From sequence record PP724615.1: 64,000 nucleotides of DNA. One strand, 5' to 3'. The notes under the pieces were generated by a model. That model saw nothing but the letters and a program-made list of their open reading frames with translations, did not search any database and had not been told where the DNA came from. The stretch comes from Escherichia phage HK6. Position numbers and translations under genes: made by a program. Below are positions 16,232 through 27,766 of the stretch, one piece after another. Numbering within the stretch: position 1 is the first letter of the stretch; the number at the start of each line of letters is the position of its first letter.

Positions 16232-16418
16232 GGAATTTTGGAAAATAAAAGGGAAGATTTCTAAGTGGAATACTACAGGGAAAATTAGTAAGTCTCTAGA
16301 GATAGAGATAGCTAGAATGTTTACTGATCCTAATTTTGATATAGAAAAACTAAGCAAAGTAGATGCTAAAAAAGTAGATAAGTATATAGAAGAGATTAGA
16401 AGTATTTTAAGTGTCTAA
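16221..16418 (+). CDS. hypothetical lysine-rich protein, 65 aa
   Basis: last ORF of operon, followed by terminator 16426..16451. Confidence 0.45.
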   Translation: MMNKEFWKIKGKISKWNTTGKISKSLEIEIARMFTDPNFDIEKLSKVDAKKVDKYIEEIRSILSV

Positions 16419-16425
16419 TCCACGT

Positions 16426-16451
16426 AACCGAGTCATTTTGGCTCGGTTTTA
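16426..16451 (+). terminator. terminator closing the Sir2/HAD operon
   Basis: AACCGAG/CTCGGTT stem then TTTTA. Confidence 0.75.
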
Positions 16452-16494
16452 TCCGTACTCAAGACCAATGATAGCACCATCCGGAAAATTTTAC

Positions 16495-16523
16495 TTGCAG
16501 GATGCCCAAAATCTTGATATAAT
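16495..16523 (+). promoter_or_regulatory. sigma70 promoter TTGCAG-17-TATAAT (extended TG)
   Basis: -35 16495..16500, -10 16518..16523. Confidence 0.7.
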
Positions 16524-16555
16524 ATTTATATTGAATTGAGAGACATTAGTAAAAA

Positions 16556-16585
16556 TTGATTTTGCTAATTTTTCTTGTTTACAAT
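16556..16585 (+). promoter_or_regulatory. sigma70-like promoter TTGATT-18-TACAAT
   Basis: -35 16556..16561, -10 16580..16585, A-tract upstream. Confidence 0.5.
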
Positions 16586-17021
16586 CCGCGATACGGAACA
16601 GTTAGGCTGCCCCATTAAGGGTTGTTTTAACTGTTACGTGTTAGTTTTTAAACAAATAGTTAATAGAATACTTAGCGATCTACATCCCGTAGGAACCCTG
16701 GTAAGGCCTCGAAGCAACCTAGTGTGAGGTGGTTGTGAAGTGAGACGGGAAGAGTGAAAAACTCTGAGAAGTGATGACGTAAGGTATACTGCATCTAGTA
16801 TGAGCTAGTACATGAAGCATTAGGTGAGCAAATCTGGCTTAGCGGCCATCCTCAAGGATTTGTGCGGTATAGTGAAGCGGCAGTGTAGCGTGAAAGGGGA
16901 AGTTGCCACCCCCCTTCAGTATTTGCGATTAATTGTTGAGAAATTGACAGTAACAGTTGTTCTATTCTTTCTGAATAGTCCTAAAGAAAACTTATTTCAT
17001 TTCCAACACAGGAGTATTGTT
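16586..17021 (+). other. long untranslated, locally structured, G-rich region (candidate ncRNA / regulatory leader / origin)
   Basis: stops in all three forward frames up to 16823, no reverse ORF, about 50% G+C in 16681..16920 by my count, multiple hairpins. Confidence 0.4.
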
Positions 17022-19811
17022 GTGTTCTCAATCCTACAAGGTCATGCAGGATTTCATCGCGACTTAGCCACAGGCATTTGGCGAGAAGTTAAAGCAGAAG
17101 ACTATCTTTTTGCTAAAAGATTTTCCTCAAAGCATCCTGAAGGTAAACCAGCTTCAATGCCCTTCAAGTTTGATGTAATTGATGAAGTTGATCCTCAAAC
17201 CCTAGTAGAAATGCTCCCTCTTATGAGACGTTTAACGTCTGACCCTCATATCGTTGCGGTACGAGGTCGATGTCTTGCACCCAAAAATAACGTGCGGCGT
17301 AAGAAGGGCAACTTTAATGTATCTAACCCAAGTCATATAATTGCATTGGACGTGGATGGTATTGTAGATACAGGTGGTTGTAACAAGTTTGATCTTGTTG
17401 GCATGGCTCGACATATTATTAGGATGTTAAATAGTATTAGTGAGGATATGTTTCCTCTTGATGCAGGGTTTATTGCTCATGCATCGTCTTCGGCTGGGCT
17501 AAAACCAGGTATCCGAATGCACTTAATACTAGAATCTAATGTTAAAGTAACTCAGGGTCAAATCAAATTCTTATTTACATCTATCAACGAAAGTAGTAGA
17601 CAAAAGTATGGCTTTGATATTGCCGACTTAGCTTATTACTCTTCCGTACAGCTCCATTATTTTGCAGATCCGTTATTTACCGATGGTATAGTAGATCCGT
17701 TTAAAGCGGAGGGTGCCTCACGTCTGGTATTTGTTAAGGGTTCTAAAGTAAATTTACCTAATAATCTGGTTGACTATGAAACAACTAGAGGTGAGTTTAA
17801 AGAGGAGTTCTACTCTTTACTCGACCAAATTAAGGGTAAAAAAGCTGCCTCTGATAAAGTAGAGGAAACTATCAGCGAACTAGAAGAAGCTGAGGATGGA
17901 GTGTACCTACGTATTATACCTAAACTCTATCATAGAGCTTTGGAGGATGGTGTTGATTTTGCATGGCTAGAAAAAGAAATCCGTCCAGCCTTATCAGAAT
18001 ATATTGCAACTAAAGATAATAGTCGCAATATTCAAGATTACTTTAATAACGGTCGTAAGCAGGCTCTAAAAGCATTTGTTAATAATTCTAAACGTGATAT
18101 ACCTGATGTTTTAAAAGGTATTCCACTTAAAAAGCTAGAAACTAACTCTCTAGAAACTGATAACTTCTTGAAATTAAATACTGTACCACCAGAAGGTTAT
18201 ATGACTTTTGTAAAAGCAAGTCTAGGTACAGGTAAAACTACGGCGGTTGTGCGTTGGTTAGATTCAGGAGTTATTAAAGGTAATTTCTTAGCAATTACCA
18301 ATACTCGAGCACTGGTATCTTCAAATGCTAAGAAATTTAGTGCAGGACAATATGATAAGTCTGTAGATATGCTTAATTTTAAGCGTGGCGCTATTGACCG
18401 TATGTCCACAACTATACATTCTTTGCATAAGTTCAAGAGTTTTATTGGTCAAATTGATGCAATCTTTATCGATGAATGTGATGCTGTAATGAATGACCTA
18501 TTATTCGCCCCGGTTGTTAAACAACGTCGTGAATGTATTCAGGTTCTTCGGGATATTCTTGCAACTGCAAAAATCATTATATTATCTGATGGGGATATTA
18601 GTGCAGAAACAATTGAAGCATACGGTTCTTTGATTGAGTTTGATAAACCAGTAGCATTTTATAATCATCACCGTAAGATGCTGTCAAAAGCTCATGCTTA
18701 TGAGTTCCCTGACGAATCCAGTATTTGGGTTGCACTTCAGACTTCTCTAGAGATGGGTGAGAAATCTATCCTAGTATCTGACTGTGGTCCAGATGAACTG
18801 AATGAGAAGGGCATGGCGTTGCGTCGTAATACGGGTGCGTTAGTTAAGGAAATCCACTCAAACTCTACGTCTGATGTAGATATTCGACGTATTCTGGATT
18901 ACACAACTAATGAGTTAATTGACCAACAAATTGATTGCTTATTATGTAGCCCATCCGTAACGAGCGGTGTTGACTTTAACTATTTTGATAACGTATTCGT
19001 TATTACTAGGACCAGTAACCAAGCGCCAAACATGCGTTTTCAAGCAATCAGGCGCGACCGTGGCGCTCAGAACATTTATTATTTTATTGATAAATCTACG
19101 AGTGGATTCTCCGCAGGTTCTGAGCAATATAACATTGACGAGGGTTGGCTGGAGTTAGCACAGCAATTATACGCACGTCGCAGAGAGCTGGAATCTAGGA
19201 ACTATACTAGTACTTTACGTTACTATTTGCTTGATCAGGGTGCAACTATTGATATTTTCAGTGAAAGCTGGGGAACTATCGAAGGTGCGGGGAAAGAATA
19301 TACAGAAGAGCGAATCAAAGCCATTTTGTATTCAACCCCTGATTATTGTGCTCCACGCCATGCAGATGCGTATGAAGCTAAACTACTTCTTGTACGCTAT
19401 TATCATCTTGAGTCTATTAAAGATGTAACAGTTGAGCATGTTGAACAATATATCAAGGATAAACCGAATGATCGAGCTGCATTCTTCCATAAGATGCACG
19501 AGATGTTCTGGGAAGATATTAAGAAGTGTTCAAATGTCACTATCAAACCATTCATAGAAGCTCTGAAAGGTAAGAAGAAAGATTTCTTCCTTAAAACAGG
19601 TCAGAGTGCTAACCCAAAATATGCAAGAATGTATCTTGGTATGATGGGTATTGGTAAGGATATGAACACGGAGAATATTGTAGACTGGTACAGAACCTAT
19701 TGTAAAATCGAGTGTATGCCAATCCCATATAAGTTTATGACTGATGAGGAGAAACATATGCATGATGAAGCAATGGCAGAGCTAGGTGCTAGAAATGACA
19801 GTGAAGAATAA
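17022..19811 (+). CDS. replication initiator-type helicase (T5 'replication origin binding protein' position), 929 aa from GTG 17022
   Basis: Walker A SLGTGKTT (18225..18239), DExD-like FIDECD, C-terminal helicase motifs; AGGAG 7 nt before GTG 17022. Confidence 0.8.
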   Translation: MFSILQGHAGFHRDLATGIWREVKAEDYLFAKRFSSKHPEGKPASMPFKFDVIDEVDPQTLVEMLPLMRRLTSDPHIVAVRGRCLAPKNNVRRKKGNFNVSNPSHIIALDVDGIVDTGGCNKFDLVGMARHIIRMLNSISEDMFPLDAGFIAHASSSAGLKPGIRMHLILESNVKVTQGQIKFLFTSINESSRQKYGFDIADLAYYSSVQLHYFADPLFTDGIVDPFKAEGASRLVFVKGSKVNLPNNLVDYETTRGEFKEEFYSLLDQIKGKKAASDKVEETISELEEAEDGVYLRIIPKLYHRALEDGVDFAWLEKEIRPALSEYIATKDNSRNIQDYFNNGRKQALKAFVNNSKRDIPDVLKGIPLKKLETNSLETDNFLKLNTVPPEGYMTFVKASLGTGKTTAVVRWLDSGVIKGNFLAITNTRALVSSNAKKFSAGQYDKSVDMLNFKRGAIDRMSTTIHSLHKFKSFIGQIDAIFIDECDAVMNDLLFAPVVKQRRECIQVLRDILATAKIIILSDGDISAETIEAYGSLIEFDKPVAFYNHHRKMLSKAHAYEFPDESSIWVALQTSLEMGEKSILVSDCGPDELNEKGMALRRNTGALVKEIHSNSTSDVDIRRILDYTTNELIDQQIDCLLCSPSVTSGVDFNYFDNVFVITRTSNQAPNMRFQAIRRDRGAQNIYYFIDKSTSGFSAGSEQYNIDEGWLELAQQLYARRRELESRNYTSTLRYYLLDQGATIDIFSESWGTIEGAGKEYTEERIKAILYSTPDYCAPRHADAYEAKLLLVRYYHLESIKDVTVEHVEQYIKDKPNDRAAFFHKMHEMFWEDIKKCSNVTIKPFIEALKGKKKDFFLKTGQSANPKYARMYLGMMGIGKDMNTENIVDWYRTYCKIECMPIPYKFMTDEEKHMHDEAMAELGARNDSEE

Positions 19812-20028
19812 AAAATGGGAAACAAGGAAGTTCCCAGTAAAAGAACGTAAAGTTCCTGTTTACGACACTTCGGAAAAGCTATGTAGGGTAGTACCGCATA
19901 GATTAGCTGGCATCCCTAACATATCCGAGTGGTTACTTAAACAACGGAAAACAAACGTGTCTCTTCGTATCGGCTTTGAGTTAGATAAAGTCTACGCTGA
20001 ACTTGCTTCTTTGCTCAAGGAATCGTAA
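19795..20028 (+). CDS. hypothetical protein, 77 aa
   Basis: AGGTG 6 nt before ATG 19795; overlaps helicase stop. Confidence 0.45.
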   Translation: MTVKNKKWETRKFPVKERKVPVYDTSEKLCRVVPHRLAGIPNISEWLLKQRKTNVSLRIGFELDKVYAELASLLKES

Positions 20029-20096: not shown

Positions 20097-20801
20097 ATGG
20101 CTGGTTCTCGCAGAAAGAAACATATCCATGAAATCCCGGATGAAGTCTTTAAAAAGGTTATAGAGCATCTGGAGAACGGTGGTACTAAGAAAGCAGCATG
20201 TGAAATGCTCGGCGTATCATCCAATCCAACTATGGAAAGGATGATTGAAGAATGGCAAGACCGCCAGATTCAAGTTGCCGAAATGAAGAAAAAGAAACGT
20301 GGTACACTCATTGAAGGCATTGAGTTAGCTAACGTTATTGAGCAGTATTTATCTGGTGATTCTTTTGAAGAAATTGCCGATCGTAATTATCGCTCTGTAG
20401 CAATGGTCAAATCAGTTTTGGAACGCTATGGTGCTTTACTTCGTTTGAACGATATTGTAGACCCATTGAATCCTCCAATTATTCCTGATGATGCTGTAGC
20501 AGAAGAATTTGCAGTTGGTGAGCTTGTTTGGGTTCCTGGATACCAGTGTATAGGCGAAATCAAAAAGGCAATGGATAATCCTGTAGGTTGCTACCGTGTA
20601 TGGCTTCTATCGGAAGGCAAACAACAGAACGTCCATTATATGAATTACGAGCTGGCCTCTGTTAAACATCTGGAAAAATTAGGGGTTGACGTAAAATCTC
20701 TAGGGTACAAGTGGACTCGTGAAGAAGTAATTTCATTAATTAATGAAGCTGTTAAGGCTGCCTTGAAACTTGATAAAGAAAAAGGAAAACGCCGTGAGTA
20801 G
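20097..20801 (+). CDS. HTH-containing early protein, 234 aa
   Basis: first gene behind promoter PN25; two HTH-like segments (KKAACEMLGVSSNPTMERMI, SFEEIADRNYRSVAMVKSVLERYG). Confidence 0.65.
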   Translation: MAGSRRKKHIHEIPDEVFKKVIEHLENGGTKKAACEMLGVSSNPTMERMIEEWQDRQIQVAEMKKKKRGTLIEGIELANVIEQYLSGDSFEEIADRNYRSVAMVKSVLERYGALLRLNDIVDPLNPPIIPDDAVAEEFAVGELVWVPGYQCIGEIKKAMDNPVGCYRVWLLSEGKQQNVHYMNYELASVKHLEKLGVDVKSLGYKWTREEVISLINEAVKAALKLDKEKGKRRE

Positions 20802-25342: not shown

Positions 25343-25374
25343 AGGGGAGGGGGCTATGCTCCTTCCCCTTTTTG
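25343..25374 (+). terminator. terminator after D5-like gene
   Basis: GGGGAGGGGG/CTCCTTCCCC stem (two G-U pairs) + TTTTT. Confidence 0.8.
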
Positions 25375-25406
25375 CATTTAGAAGGCACGAAAGCGTGCAA
25401 AGGAGA

Positions 25407-26879
25407 ATGACCTTGTTTAACGTGCAAGCTGTAGTGTTGAAGATGCTTCTCGCTTCCGAACAGAAGCAAATAGCATTGGAAACATTCTCAAAACTGCATA
25501 AAGATCATTTTAATGACGCTTTCTCCTCAATTTACCAAGCCGTCCAGAATTATTATAAAAAATATAACACAATGCCGTCCATTGACGCACTTATGCTTGA
25601 AGCTAATAGGAACGCCCGCCTTTCTCAAGCTCTAGTCGTCTTAGCTAACACTCAAATTCCAGAAGTGAGCATGGAACAGGCACTTGAAGTCCTAGAGGCC
25701 GAATATACACAGGATTTATTCCTGAAGCTTCTAGAAACAGACGTGCTTCAAGATTTAACAATGCTGGATCAGGGAGAAATTCTCAACCGAGTTGCCTCCC
25801 TTCACTTAAAATTAGAAGAGAAAGTAACGAATACTGGAAAAGTATTCAACGCAGATAACATGCGTATTTTCCAGAGAGAAGAAGATACCAAACTGAACTT
25901 AATCGCTCTTGGTATTTGTAATGAGTTCGACGCTCAAATTGGTTTAGCTCGCACAGAAACGTTACTGCTTGGTGGTTGGCGTGGTACTGGTAAATCCATT
26001 ATCTGTTCAAACATACAGGTTCAGCAATATTTGAATGGGGATATTGCTCCATACTTCTCAATTGAGATGAAAGAACATGAAGTATTTAGACGTAATCTAG
26101 CCATGTTAGCTGGTGTATCAGCATTAGCAATGCGTAATAATACTCTAGAAGGTGCAGCTCTATTAAGATTAGCCAGAACTAGAGCTAGAATGTTTAATGG
26201 TGGTGAAGAGCTTTTCGATAACTTCGTTAAACAGTACACAATGGCTAAGATGAGTGATTTCTACGATATGGAGAGTAAACTAATAGAAGGGTATGAGCTA
26301 CATACTCCTATGATTATTGTTTATGACCCTGAGCTGTCTATTACAACAGTTGACGTAGAATTAAATAAATTAGTTGCTAGATATGGAGATAAAGTTACAG
26401 TAGCTTTACTGGACTATATTAACCAAACCCGACTTCCAGATTCTAAAACCATTGATATGTATGACTGGAAAGAACAGATGGTTGTTAGCTCGTCTTTCAA
26501 ATCTATCTGCCAGAAACATAACGTGGCTGGTGTAGCTCCTTACCAGATCGATCAAGATGGTAGAACACGTATGTCAAAGGGGATTCTTGATTCCGCAGAC
26601 ATGGCTGCTAATCTTAATGCTGCAAAAGCTGATAATGGTCAAGGTGCTATTATGTTTGACTTCGTTAAGACTCGTTCTTCTGATAGCGTGAAGTTTATGC
26701 CTAAAATGAACTGGGAAACTCTGCGAATGGATAACACTACCAACCTAGCAATGGAAGATATATCTCAAATGGAAGCTGAGTTCGTTATCCCTATTGAGAA
26801 GGATAAGCCGGCTCAACCTAAACGTGCTAAGAAAGACAAAACTGAAAATTCAACAGGTGAACAGGCCAGCGATATATGA
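25407..26879 (+). CDS. DnaB-like replicative helicase, about 490 aa (start ATG 25407 or TTG 25413)
   Basis: Walker A GGWRGTGKS, RecA-like core; track start 25356 lies inside the upstream terminator hairpin; AGGAG at 25401..25405 favours TTG 25413. Confidence 0.85.
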   Translation: MTLFNVQAVVLKMLLASEQKQIALETFSKLHKDHFNDAFSSIYQAVQNYYKKYNTMPSIDALMLEANRNARLSQALVVLANTQIPEVSMEQALEVLEAEYTQDLFLKLLETDVLQDLTMLDQGEILNRVASLHLKLEEKVTNTGKVFNADNMRIFQREEDTKLNLIALGICNEFDAQIGLARTETLLLGGWRGTGKSIICSNIQVQQYLNGDIAPYFSIEMKEHEVFRRNLAMLAGVSALAMRNNTLEGAALLRLARTRARMFNGGEELFDNFVKQYTMAKMSDFYDMESKLIEGYELHTPMIIVYDPELSITTVDVELNKLVARYGDKVTVALLDYINQTRLPDSKTIDMYDWKEQMVVSSSFKSICQKHNVAGVAPYQIDQDGRTRMSKGILDSADMAANLNAAKADNGQGAIMFDFVKTRSSDSVKFMPKMNWETLRMDNTTNLAMEDISQMEAEFVIPIEKDKPAQPKRAKKDKTENSTGEQASDI

Positions 26880-27766
26880 GTAGAATAACAGAACTACTTG
26901 ATCTGAAAGGCATTGAATATAAAGACACAGGTGGGGACATCCTCATCTGTTGTCTCAATCCAGATCATGACGATAAACACCCAAGTTTGCGTATTGATCC
27001 TGAAACAGGTATTATGCACTGCTTGAGTTGTGGCTTCGGTAAAGGTATACCGAGCATTTACCATTATTTTAATGAGACTCAGTACAGACAGTCCCCAAGG
27101 CTATCGCAAGTACGCAAAAAGATTTCAGAGATTAGGAATGGATCAACGAATCTTGCAATTCCTGAATCTGCTTACCTTTTCGAAGGTGATTTCCGAGGTA
27201 TAAGTTCTAAGACCTTGAAGAAATATTTTGCTTTCCAACACCAAGCAGACTGGGAAGGCAGAATTGTATTCCCAATCACAGATGCTGTTGGACGCAATAT
27301 CCTATTTTTGGGTCGTTCTATAAACAGTTCTGCCCCTCCTAAATACTTAGTAAAACCAAAACAAGTTTCACCGCCGATTTTCCCTGTACGATATAATACT
27401 CCAGTGCTTATTCTAGTTGAAGGTATCTTTGATATGCTGAACCTAGAGGATAATGGTATAGACTATGCTTCTTGCTGCTTTGGTACACATCAGTTCACTT
27501 CAGATAACATTGCAGATAAGTTCAGTCCTTATATTATTGCTGGTGTAAAAGTTGTTGTTATCTTACTAGATAATGATGCTTCTGGTAATAAAGCTGCACA
27601 AGCGTTGGCCAAGCTAATTCGTACAAAAACGCGTTTAACACCTGTAGTTGCTAACTTTCTCCTACCTGAAGGCAAAGATCCAGGTGAGTTAAACAAAGAT
27701 GAAATTGATATGTTAGCAAAACGTATTGAAATTTTAGTTGCTGAATCGCTTAAAGATTTGGTATAA
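26876..27766 (+). CDS. DnaG-type DNA primase, 296 aa
   Basis: Zn finger CCLNPDHDDKHPSLRIDPETGIMHCLSCG, TOPRIM LVEGIFD and LDNDASGNKAA. Confidence 0.85.
   Translation: MSRITELLDLKGIEYKDTGGDILICCLNPDHDDKHPSLRIDPETGIMHCLSCGFGKGIPSIYHYFNETQYRQSPRLSQVRKKISEIRNGSTNLAIPESAYLFEGDFRGISSKTLKKYFAFQHQADWEGRIVFPITDAVGRNILFLGRSINSSAPPKYLVKPKQVSPPIFPVRYNTPVLILVEGIFDMLNLEDNGIDYASCCFGTHQFTSDNIADKFSPYIIAGVKVVVILLDNDASGNKAAQALAKLIRTKTRLTPVVANFLLPEGKDPGELNKDEIDMLAKRIEILVAESLKDLV

Follow-up and report, generated by a model that had tools for sequence, protein, structure and literature searches.

How replication starts in phage T5, a classical model phage, is a long-open question, and D2, the protein proposed as its replication initiator (Wong, Sayers & Sanders 2013, PMC3632103), is essential but has so far been viewed as no more than an unusual helicase. 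We took up this question at the corresponding locus of Escherichia phage HK6 (sequence record PP724615.1), of which a stretch of 64,000 nucleotides, here called the window, was analysed. The window derives from a T5-like phage, positions 16400-19900 sharing 97-98% identity with Tequintavirus genomes of Salmonella and Escherichia phages, Spc35 among them. Its coding sequence at 17022..19811 (on the + strand, as are its parts, the features of the upstream island and the DnaB- and DnaG-type genes located below) specifies an initiator protein of 929 amino acids (aa), delimited from the open reading frame (ORF) list, the ribosome-binding site (RBS), PHROG 3712 and identity to T5 obp, whose product (AAX12037) it matches at 93% identity. 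What, then, does the long region ahead of its helicase contribute? The reading that we favour, and consider reasonably probable, is a four-module T5 initiator in which a divergent archaeo-eukaryotic primase (AEP) is fused to a UL9-like initiator helicase; that the N-terminal domain has an AEP fold is, judging from predicted structure, very probable.

A preliminary description of this DNA had proposed that the N-terminal part of the protein carries three AEP-type motifs, in order, ahead of the helicase Walker A. The translation of 17022..19811 contains all three within one codon of where they had been placed, and the Walker A, GTGKT, lies exactly at 18225-18239. Motif I, HIIALDVDG (hhhDhD), occupies 17334..17360, with D110 at 17349-17351 and D112 at 17355-17357; IIALDVDG corresponds to aa 106-113 (17337-17360), and the interval first assigned to it, 17343-17360, encodes ALDVDG. 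The motif II region, AHASSSAGLKPGIRMHLIL (aa 152-170; 17475..17531), includes H167 at 17520-17522, and the motif III region, FDIADLAYYSSVQLHYFADP (aa 198-217; 17613..17672), includes D202 at 17625-17627, the original start of each having been set one codon late. R234 (17721..17723), which is kept in 69/74 homologues (93%), is followed by L and precedes a predicted strand, is a candidate for the motif IV arginine ('Rh').

In an alignment with nine Demerecviridae orthologues (26-73% identity; from Klebsiella, Pectobacterium, Providencia, Vibrio and Aeromonas phages), 28 columns are invariant, among them D110, D112, S155, S157, G159, I164, R165, H167, D202 and Y206. Because homologue searches with the N-terminal domain alone, or with the nine-sequence alignment, gave two fragments only, alignment depth was taken from HMMER run exhaustively over 1.8 billion representative proteins, which yielded 81 relatives. 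Across the wider conservation alignment of 75 homologues, reaching down to ~20% identity, D202 and P217 are present in every sequence (75/75), D112 in 74/75, D110 in 73/75 and H167 in 69/75, with K32, S155 and G159 also among the best conserved positions. The conserved acid within the third motif is D202; D199 is not conserved. Conservation at this depth, and in the nine orthologues, rules out a chance occurrence of the motifs.

We compared these residues with the published definitions of the AEP motifs, hhhDhD/E, sxH, hD/E and, for motif IV, 'Rh' (PMC5862659). For motif I, IIALDVD falls within a predicted strand at aa 104-114 and both D110 and D112 are at least 97% conserved over the 75 sequences, and for motif III the pattern hD/E is matched by IAD202, with its invariant aspartate. 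Motif II had been likened to sGxGxHhh. Its histidine, H167, is indeed 92% conserved, but the position two residues before it is R or K rather than small, giving R/K-x-H after an SSSAG loop. In several distant members Arg replaces this His, which mirrors variation known among AEPs, His-to-Arg/Lys changes at motif II being a feature of the DR0530-like family (PMC5862659).

An AlphaFold2 model of aa 1-395, built from the 75-sequence alignment (pLDDT 94, pTM 0.78), predicts a fold of the AEP type, related to the RNA recognition motif (RRM), for the catalytic core. In the model H167 opens a strand (aa 164-176), D202 comes after a helix (178-196) and R234 stands directly ahead of another strand (aa 235-238); the order and kind of these elements are those expected from the AEP motif definitions of PMC5862659. 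The AEP-like catalytic core extends over about aa 1-250 (17022..17771), and a separate helical bundle at about aa 260-357 (17799..18092) is a candidate primase accessory domain, PriCT-like or helix-bundle-like, although hhalign against PriCT_1 gave a weak result (P=0.066). The AEP likeness initially assigned to the N-terminal ~390 aa thus narrows to the core, where the predicted fold is AEP-like and motifs I-III fall in order on the most conserved residues.

When this model was searched against the PDB with Foldseek, the best 50 matches were all AEP-superfamily enzymes, including the mycobacterial LigD polymerase domain, African swine fever virus (ASFV) PrimPol, RSF1010 RepB', cyanophage S-2L PrimPol, Prim-PolC, HP0184, herpes UL52 and vaccinia D5. 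These matches score weakly (best E 3e-3, probability 0.97; TM 0.2-0.4). The match to RepB' was considered with regard to the PrimPol-PV1 supergroup, as was R234-L with its position ahead of the aa 235-238 strand. Structural matches to the N-terminal domain, given here as score, aligned length and deviation, were human PrimPol (7jk1; 6.3, 147, 3.7 A), pRN1 ORF904 (3m1m; 5.8, 125, 4.1 A), herpes simplex virus (HSV) UL52 (9ut1_B; 5.6, 175, 4.9 A), the AEP domain of monkeypox virus (MPXV) E5 (8xig; 5.5, 137, 3.7 A) and vaccinia D5 (8hwa; 5.4, 161, 7.8 A).

Domain architecture provides a further line of evidence. Among 44 distant homologues, the domains found downstream of the T5-type domain are VapE-like in 11, DUF5906 (a D5-type superfamily 3 (SF3) helicase) in 9 and PriCT-2 in 4. 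The homologue P0045 has the layout N-domain, PriCT_2, D5_N, DUF5906, Pox_D5, which, as read from its sequence, is a textbook AEP primase-helicase arrangement in which the T5-type domain occupies the AEP position. PHROG 16950, 'DNA primase', is matched by 22/29 domain-only sequences. Cluster names of the distant homologues were uninformative, and a tblastn search of plasmids with one of them returned the VapE part or 'hypothetical protein' entries only. This AEP-like family has no Pfam or NCBIfam model, and the annotation pipeline PGAP calls its plasmid and prophage-like members 'hypothetical protein'. Two such proteins, of ~1,160-1,180 aa and with an N-terminal AEP-like domain, are encoded on Skermanella plasmid pSR-5 (locus L013:3839-7333 of our comparison) and a Roseomonas plasmid (L014:3938-7483); they lack any Pfam domain, adjoin a gene for an AlpA-family regulator or a terminase small subunit, and may be replication proteins of phage-plasmid-like elements.

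A phage collection contains 905 records with the N-terminal domain and 906 with the helicase part, and the matches listed in both searches are T5-like phages, plus phiHAP-1 as a weak helicase-only match. Judging from this co-occurrence of the two parts, the fusion is ancestral to the T5-like phages. Identity to the Vibrio phage proteins is 47-54% for the helicase half vs 28-33% for the N-terminal domain, and the helicase half is the slower to evolve.

Several observations weigh against the reading as a divergent AEP primase. No relevant Pfam family was found at E<10 for 29 domain sequences, and a hidden Markov model of the domain family run against PDB sequences recovered no AEP, only chance matches (antibody, YfiB); NCBIfam likewise gave no match for the N-terminal domain. 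HHalign against an alignment of Prim-Pol (PF09250 plus PriCT-1) was weak (P=0.013, probability 3%, Viterbi core 11 columns); in favour of the reading, though, that single alignment is in register at motifs I and II, setting DVD on an invariant DID and H167 on an invariant His. Motif II, as R/K-x-H after the SSSAG loop, departs from the canonical small-x-H. As had been noted before, the genome also encodes a DnaB-type helicase (25356..26879; Pfam DnaB_C 7.8e-9) and a DnaG-type primase (26876..27766; Pfam Zn_ribbon_DnaG, DNAG_N and Toprim_2/4), and with a DnaG primase present a second primase is not obviously needed. Finally, the published assays of D2 concern ATPase, helicase and DNA binding only (PMC3632103), and neither that paper nor the rest of the searched literature contains a primase or polymerase assay of T5 D2. 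Of the two kinds of comparison that the preliminary description had pointed to, AlphaFold2 and Foldseek lead to AEPs, whereas profile similarity to AEP families is essentially undetectable, and for this reason the argument for an AEP draws on the predicted structure, the conserved residues and the domain architecture.

The remainder of the protein is related to herpesvirus UL9. A superfamily 2 (SF2) helicase core spans about aa 393-722 (18198..19187; Walker A 18216-18239, DECD 18471-18482), and with GTGKT, DECD and its similarity to UL9 it is of the UL9/CyRepA type. Pfam PF02399 (Herpes_ori_bp) matches at about aa 392-533 (4.1e-7, above the cut-off), and UL9 chains are the best sequence match of the helicase part among solved structures (1.9e-5). 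From a full-length model (pLDDT 89), aa ~390-929 match UL9 (9hgj) in Foldseek at E=3.5e-15, ahead of generic SF2 helicases by some five orders of magnitude. The alignment to UL9 covers ~560-600 columns and is longer than the helicase core; a C-terminal helical domain at about aa 723-929 (19188..19808), all-helical in the model, possibly binds DNA. NCBIfam NF042913, CyRepA1, matches aa 393-722 at 4.7e-35 with 121.6 bits vs a 200-bit cut-off, and we regard the window helicase as a relative, not a member, of the CyRepA1 family. RepA of the Halomonas telomere phage phiHAP-1 (1,347 aa; L020:1345-5388) shares the UL9-like helicase core at 24% identity. Its N-terminal ~540 aa matched neither Pfam nor the T5-type domain (hhalign against the domain family) and may be another primase-type module in the same position.

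T5 D2 and the window protein are orthologues with the same Walker A position, K405 and UL9-like core: the Walker A (aa 399-406), K405 and the PF02399 span of the window protein coincide with those of the purified D2 of PMC3632103. That D2 hydrolyses ATP in a DNA-dependent manner, is a bipolar helicase that favours the 3'-5' direction and is inactive as K405E; the only DNA binding reported for it is non-specific, to single-stranded DNA and tailed duplex; older genetics cited there found that D2 amber mutants make no net DNA (PMC3632103). For aa 1-390 the same study described a predicted helix-turn-helix (HTH, 308-329) and coiled coils only, without proposing a primase domain (PMC3632103).

These properties bear on two other functions that the N-terminal domain might have. 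It could have the AEP fold and yet be a non-primase module for DNA or origin binding or for protein interaction, its acidic residues being structural or metal-binding. Some RRM-like origin-binding domains do serve as binding modules. The complete DnaB/DnaG pair in the phage and the weak similarity of the domain to active AEPs favour such a role, as does the full DNA binding retained by the K405E protein, by which sites exist outside the ATPase site (PMC3632103). However, the AEP catalytic set (DxD, H and D, plus R234) is what the family conserves most, down to ~20% identity and across fusion partners, a pattern typically seen where an active site is maintained, since AEP domains that have become inactive usually lose their catalytic residues. 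We consider a non-primase module unlikely, and a maintained active site likely.

The domain could also be a catalytically active AEP whose main role is that of a polymerase, in translesion synthesis or re-priming of the PrimPol type, or of a terminal transferase, and which rescues stalled forks instead of initiating at an origin. Its structural neighbours PrimPol, LigD-pol and Prim-PolC are repair or re-priming enzymes, and bipolar unwinding of forked or tailed substrates is reported for the helicase, but the reported lack of net DNA in D2 amber mutants indicates a role in initiation, not rescue (PMC3632103). Since homologues also fill the primase slot of replicative primase-helicase architectures, fork rescue seems to us quite improbable as the main function. 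A spurious likeness, the domain being some other RRM-like or palm enzyme such as an HUH-type nicking Rep, might be entertained because T5 DNA carries site-specific nicks, a Q-x-H-Y follows motif III (Q210, H212 and Y213 conserved at 71-83%) and sequence profiles do not tie the domain to AEP families, but it is highly improbable, an HUH/Rep-type nickase being essentially excluded by fold searches in which 0/50 best Foldseek matches are HUH/Rep and all are AEPs, with invariant residues that follow a DxD...H...D pattern and include no His-hydrophobic-His, and with relatives joined to typical partners of primases, namely PriCT-2 and D5-type helicase modules.

Under the favoured reading of an AEP primase fused to a UL9-like helicase, the first of the four modules would be the divergent AEP catalytic domain (about aa 1-250), in whose predicted active site D110 and D112 would bind metal, the SSSAG loop together with R165/H167 would bind the nucleotide and D202 would be the third metal ligand; R234 is probably also part of this site. 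The helical bundle (about aa 260-357) would form the second module, probably a primase accessory or template-binding domain, followed by the UL9/CyRepA-type SF2 helicase (about aa 393-722) and the C-terminal helical domain. The initiator would bind and open phage DNA by means of its helicase, mainly 3'-5', an activity that has been shown for T5 D2 (PMC3632103). The tethered AEP domain, aided by the helical bundle, would then supply the phage DNA polymerase with its first primer or primers, and the DnaB-like helicase and DnaG-like primase would subsequently take over the fork and lagging-strand priming. On this model T5-type phages probably carry a second, initiator-linked primase beside the DnaG-type one.

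The intergenic island directly upstream of the gene had been thought to complete a self-contained origin-initiator module. It contains a terminator-like hairpin that ends the upstream operon (16426..16448; an inverted repeat, then a T run), at the equivalent place of which the T5 record annotates a rho-independent terminator. An early promoter at 16495..16523 (TTGCAG, 17 nt, extended -10 TGATATAAT) is identified by cross-phage conservation: it is kept in the window, in TrudiRoth and in Klebsiella phages, and Pectobacterium and Providencia phages have variants of it. The T5 record has 'putative early promoter T5P32' at this place; a consensus promoter scan did not list it. From the promoter position, a structured 5' leader of ~490 nt would extend over 16530..17021. 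We compared the leader with those of other loci (L015:3670-4141, L010, L002, L003 and L019); it contains two conserved blocks, ATACGGAACAGTTAGGCTGCCCCAT and GGCTTAGCGGCC, at 16590-16614 and 16836-16847, and a variable centre, which is replaced between lineages such that only 44-52% of the query is covered.

A long-range helix pairs 16629-16637 with 16950-16958 and shows compensatory changes, with G-C in the window, G-U in T5 and A-U in Epseptimavirus phages. In Pantoea AAS21 and Pectobacterium My1 the leaders form helices of 13-15 bp that are unrelated in sequence and stronger than every control window. The minimum-free-energy z of the leader is -2.25, and Rfam returned only a chance snoRNA match (E=0.23) for the island. 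No iterons were found in the island (16420-17021). From these sequence comparisons the island appears to be a transcribed, structured leader, and its role as a replication origin is unsupported; the leader may represent a novel structured RNA with a regulatory or origin-associated role. A broader proposal, which we consider rather unlikely, is a two-primase T5 system in which D2 opens and primes DNA and the promoter and leader belong to the same origin/initiator cassette. The leader would there act as an origin transcript or as a regulator of initiator dosage, compare the CyRepA1 locus of pSYSA. In the 64-kb window the cumulative GC skew is lowest near 10 kb and highest near 40-42 kb; we suspect that these extremes track gene-orientation switches and not an obvious origin at the D2 locus.

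The initiator gene starts with GTG at 17022, with AGGAG 8 nt 5' of it. PHROG 3712, 'replication origin binding', aligns starting exactly at residue 1 of this ORF (E=0), and orthologue starts in Klebsiella, Pectobacterium and Providencia phages align with the same GTG. A 995-aa version from an in-frame GTG at 16824, used in the Spc35 RefSeq record (L001:9425-12412), is probably an over-extension, its 5' part not being conserved and the RBS and PHROG alignment both favouring 17022. Other database records use further alternative starts. Labels for the obp gene are also inconsistent: 'replication origin binding protein', 'DNA primase C', 'helicase' and 'hypothetical' all occur, and a minority of GenBank records name the T5-type protein 'DNA primase', 'DNA primase C' or 'putative DNA primase'. 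In several GenBank records it is a 234-aa HTH protein encoded 3' of the initiator gene (20097-20801) that is called 'D2 protein' or 'helicase'. The characterised 'D2 helicase' (Walker A 399-406, K405) is the product of the 929-aa obp gene, so that the database gene names are crossed. The obp gene lies at 59.6-62.4 kb of the 121.75 kb of T5, or 49-51% of the genome. In some T5-like phages, genes annotated as putative DNA, homing or plain endonucleases are found directly 5' of the promoter (SHSML-45 and mar003J3; L017:1-118 and L018:1-118) or directly 3' of obp (T5; L015:6915-7433); the initiator locus looks like an insertion hotspot for such genes.

A tethered AEP primase would provide a concrete model of initiation, in which one protein both opens and primes DNA. 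According to a 2016 survey, dsDNA viruses carry either an AEP or a DnaG, phage RM378 being the only case with both (PMC4889955). If the two-primase proposal holds, the T5-type family would be a clear second exception to this rule; the finding would add the more than 900 phage records with this protein. The AEP-like family also extends to primase-helicase proteins, so far uncharacterised, that plasmids and prophage-like elements encode, and better annotation of the inconsistently labelled obp gene would follow. AEP-helicase fusions are already well known, and in hindsight the finding holds no mechanistic surprise and had in part been foreshadowed by database labels; that T5 D2/obp carries one appears to be unreported, the searchable literature containing no prior report of an AEP domain in this initiator.

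Known AEP primase-helicase fusions include pRN1 ORF904, poxvirus D5/E5, ASFV PrimPol and the AEP-PriCT-D5/VapE proteins. The T5-type domain differs from these in lacking a Pfam AEP match and in its R/K-x-H form of motif II. Its partner is an SF2 and not an SF3 helicase, and it coexists with DnaG/DnaB in a large lytic phage. In herpesviruses the UL9 helicase and the UL52 AEP primase are separate proteins, whereas the phage protein, with UL9 as the best structural match to aa ~390-929 and UL52 among the matches of its N-terminal domain, would have both fused. The UL52 primase works with UL5, an SF1 helicase. Fusions of all3500-like AEPs to SF2 domains with a remote likeness to UL9 are on record from bacteria (PMC5862659). 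The cyanobacterial CyRepA1 (Slr7037) has a homologous helicase core and the same layout, with an N-terminal primase-type domain, helical linkers and a DEXDc helicase. Plasmid replication requires this protein, and a locus for a regulatory or priming RNA lies directly upstream of its gene (PMC9978351, PMC10079941). Its N-terminal domain is DUF3854, which is Toprim-related (PMC9978351, PMC10079941), whereas that of the T5-type protein is AEP-like; because CyRepA1 carries a Toprim-related N-terminus, this helicase family would recur with interchangeable primase domains in the same position. As an essential plasmid Rep with an N-terminal Toprim-like primase domain, CyRepA1 offers a parallel that supports the reading of the T5 initiator as an AEP primase fused to its helicase.

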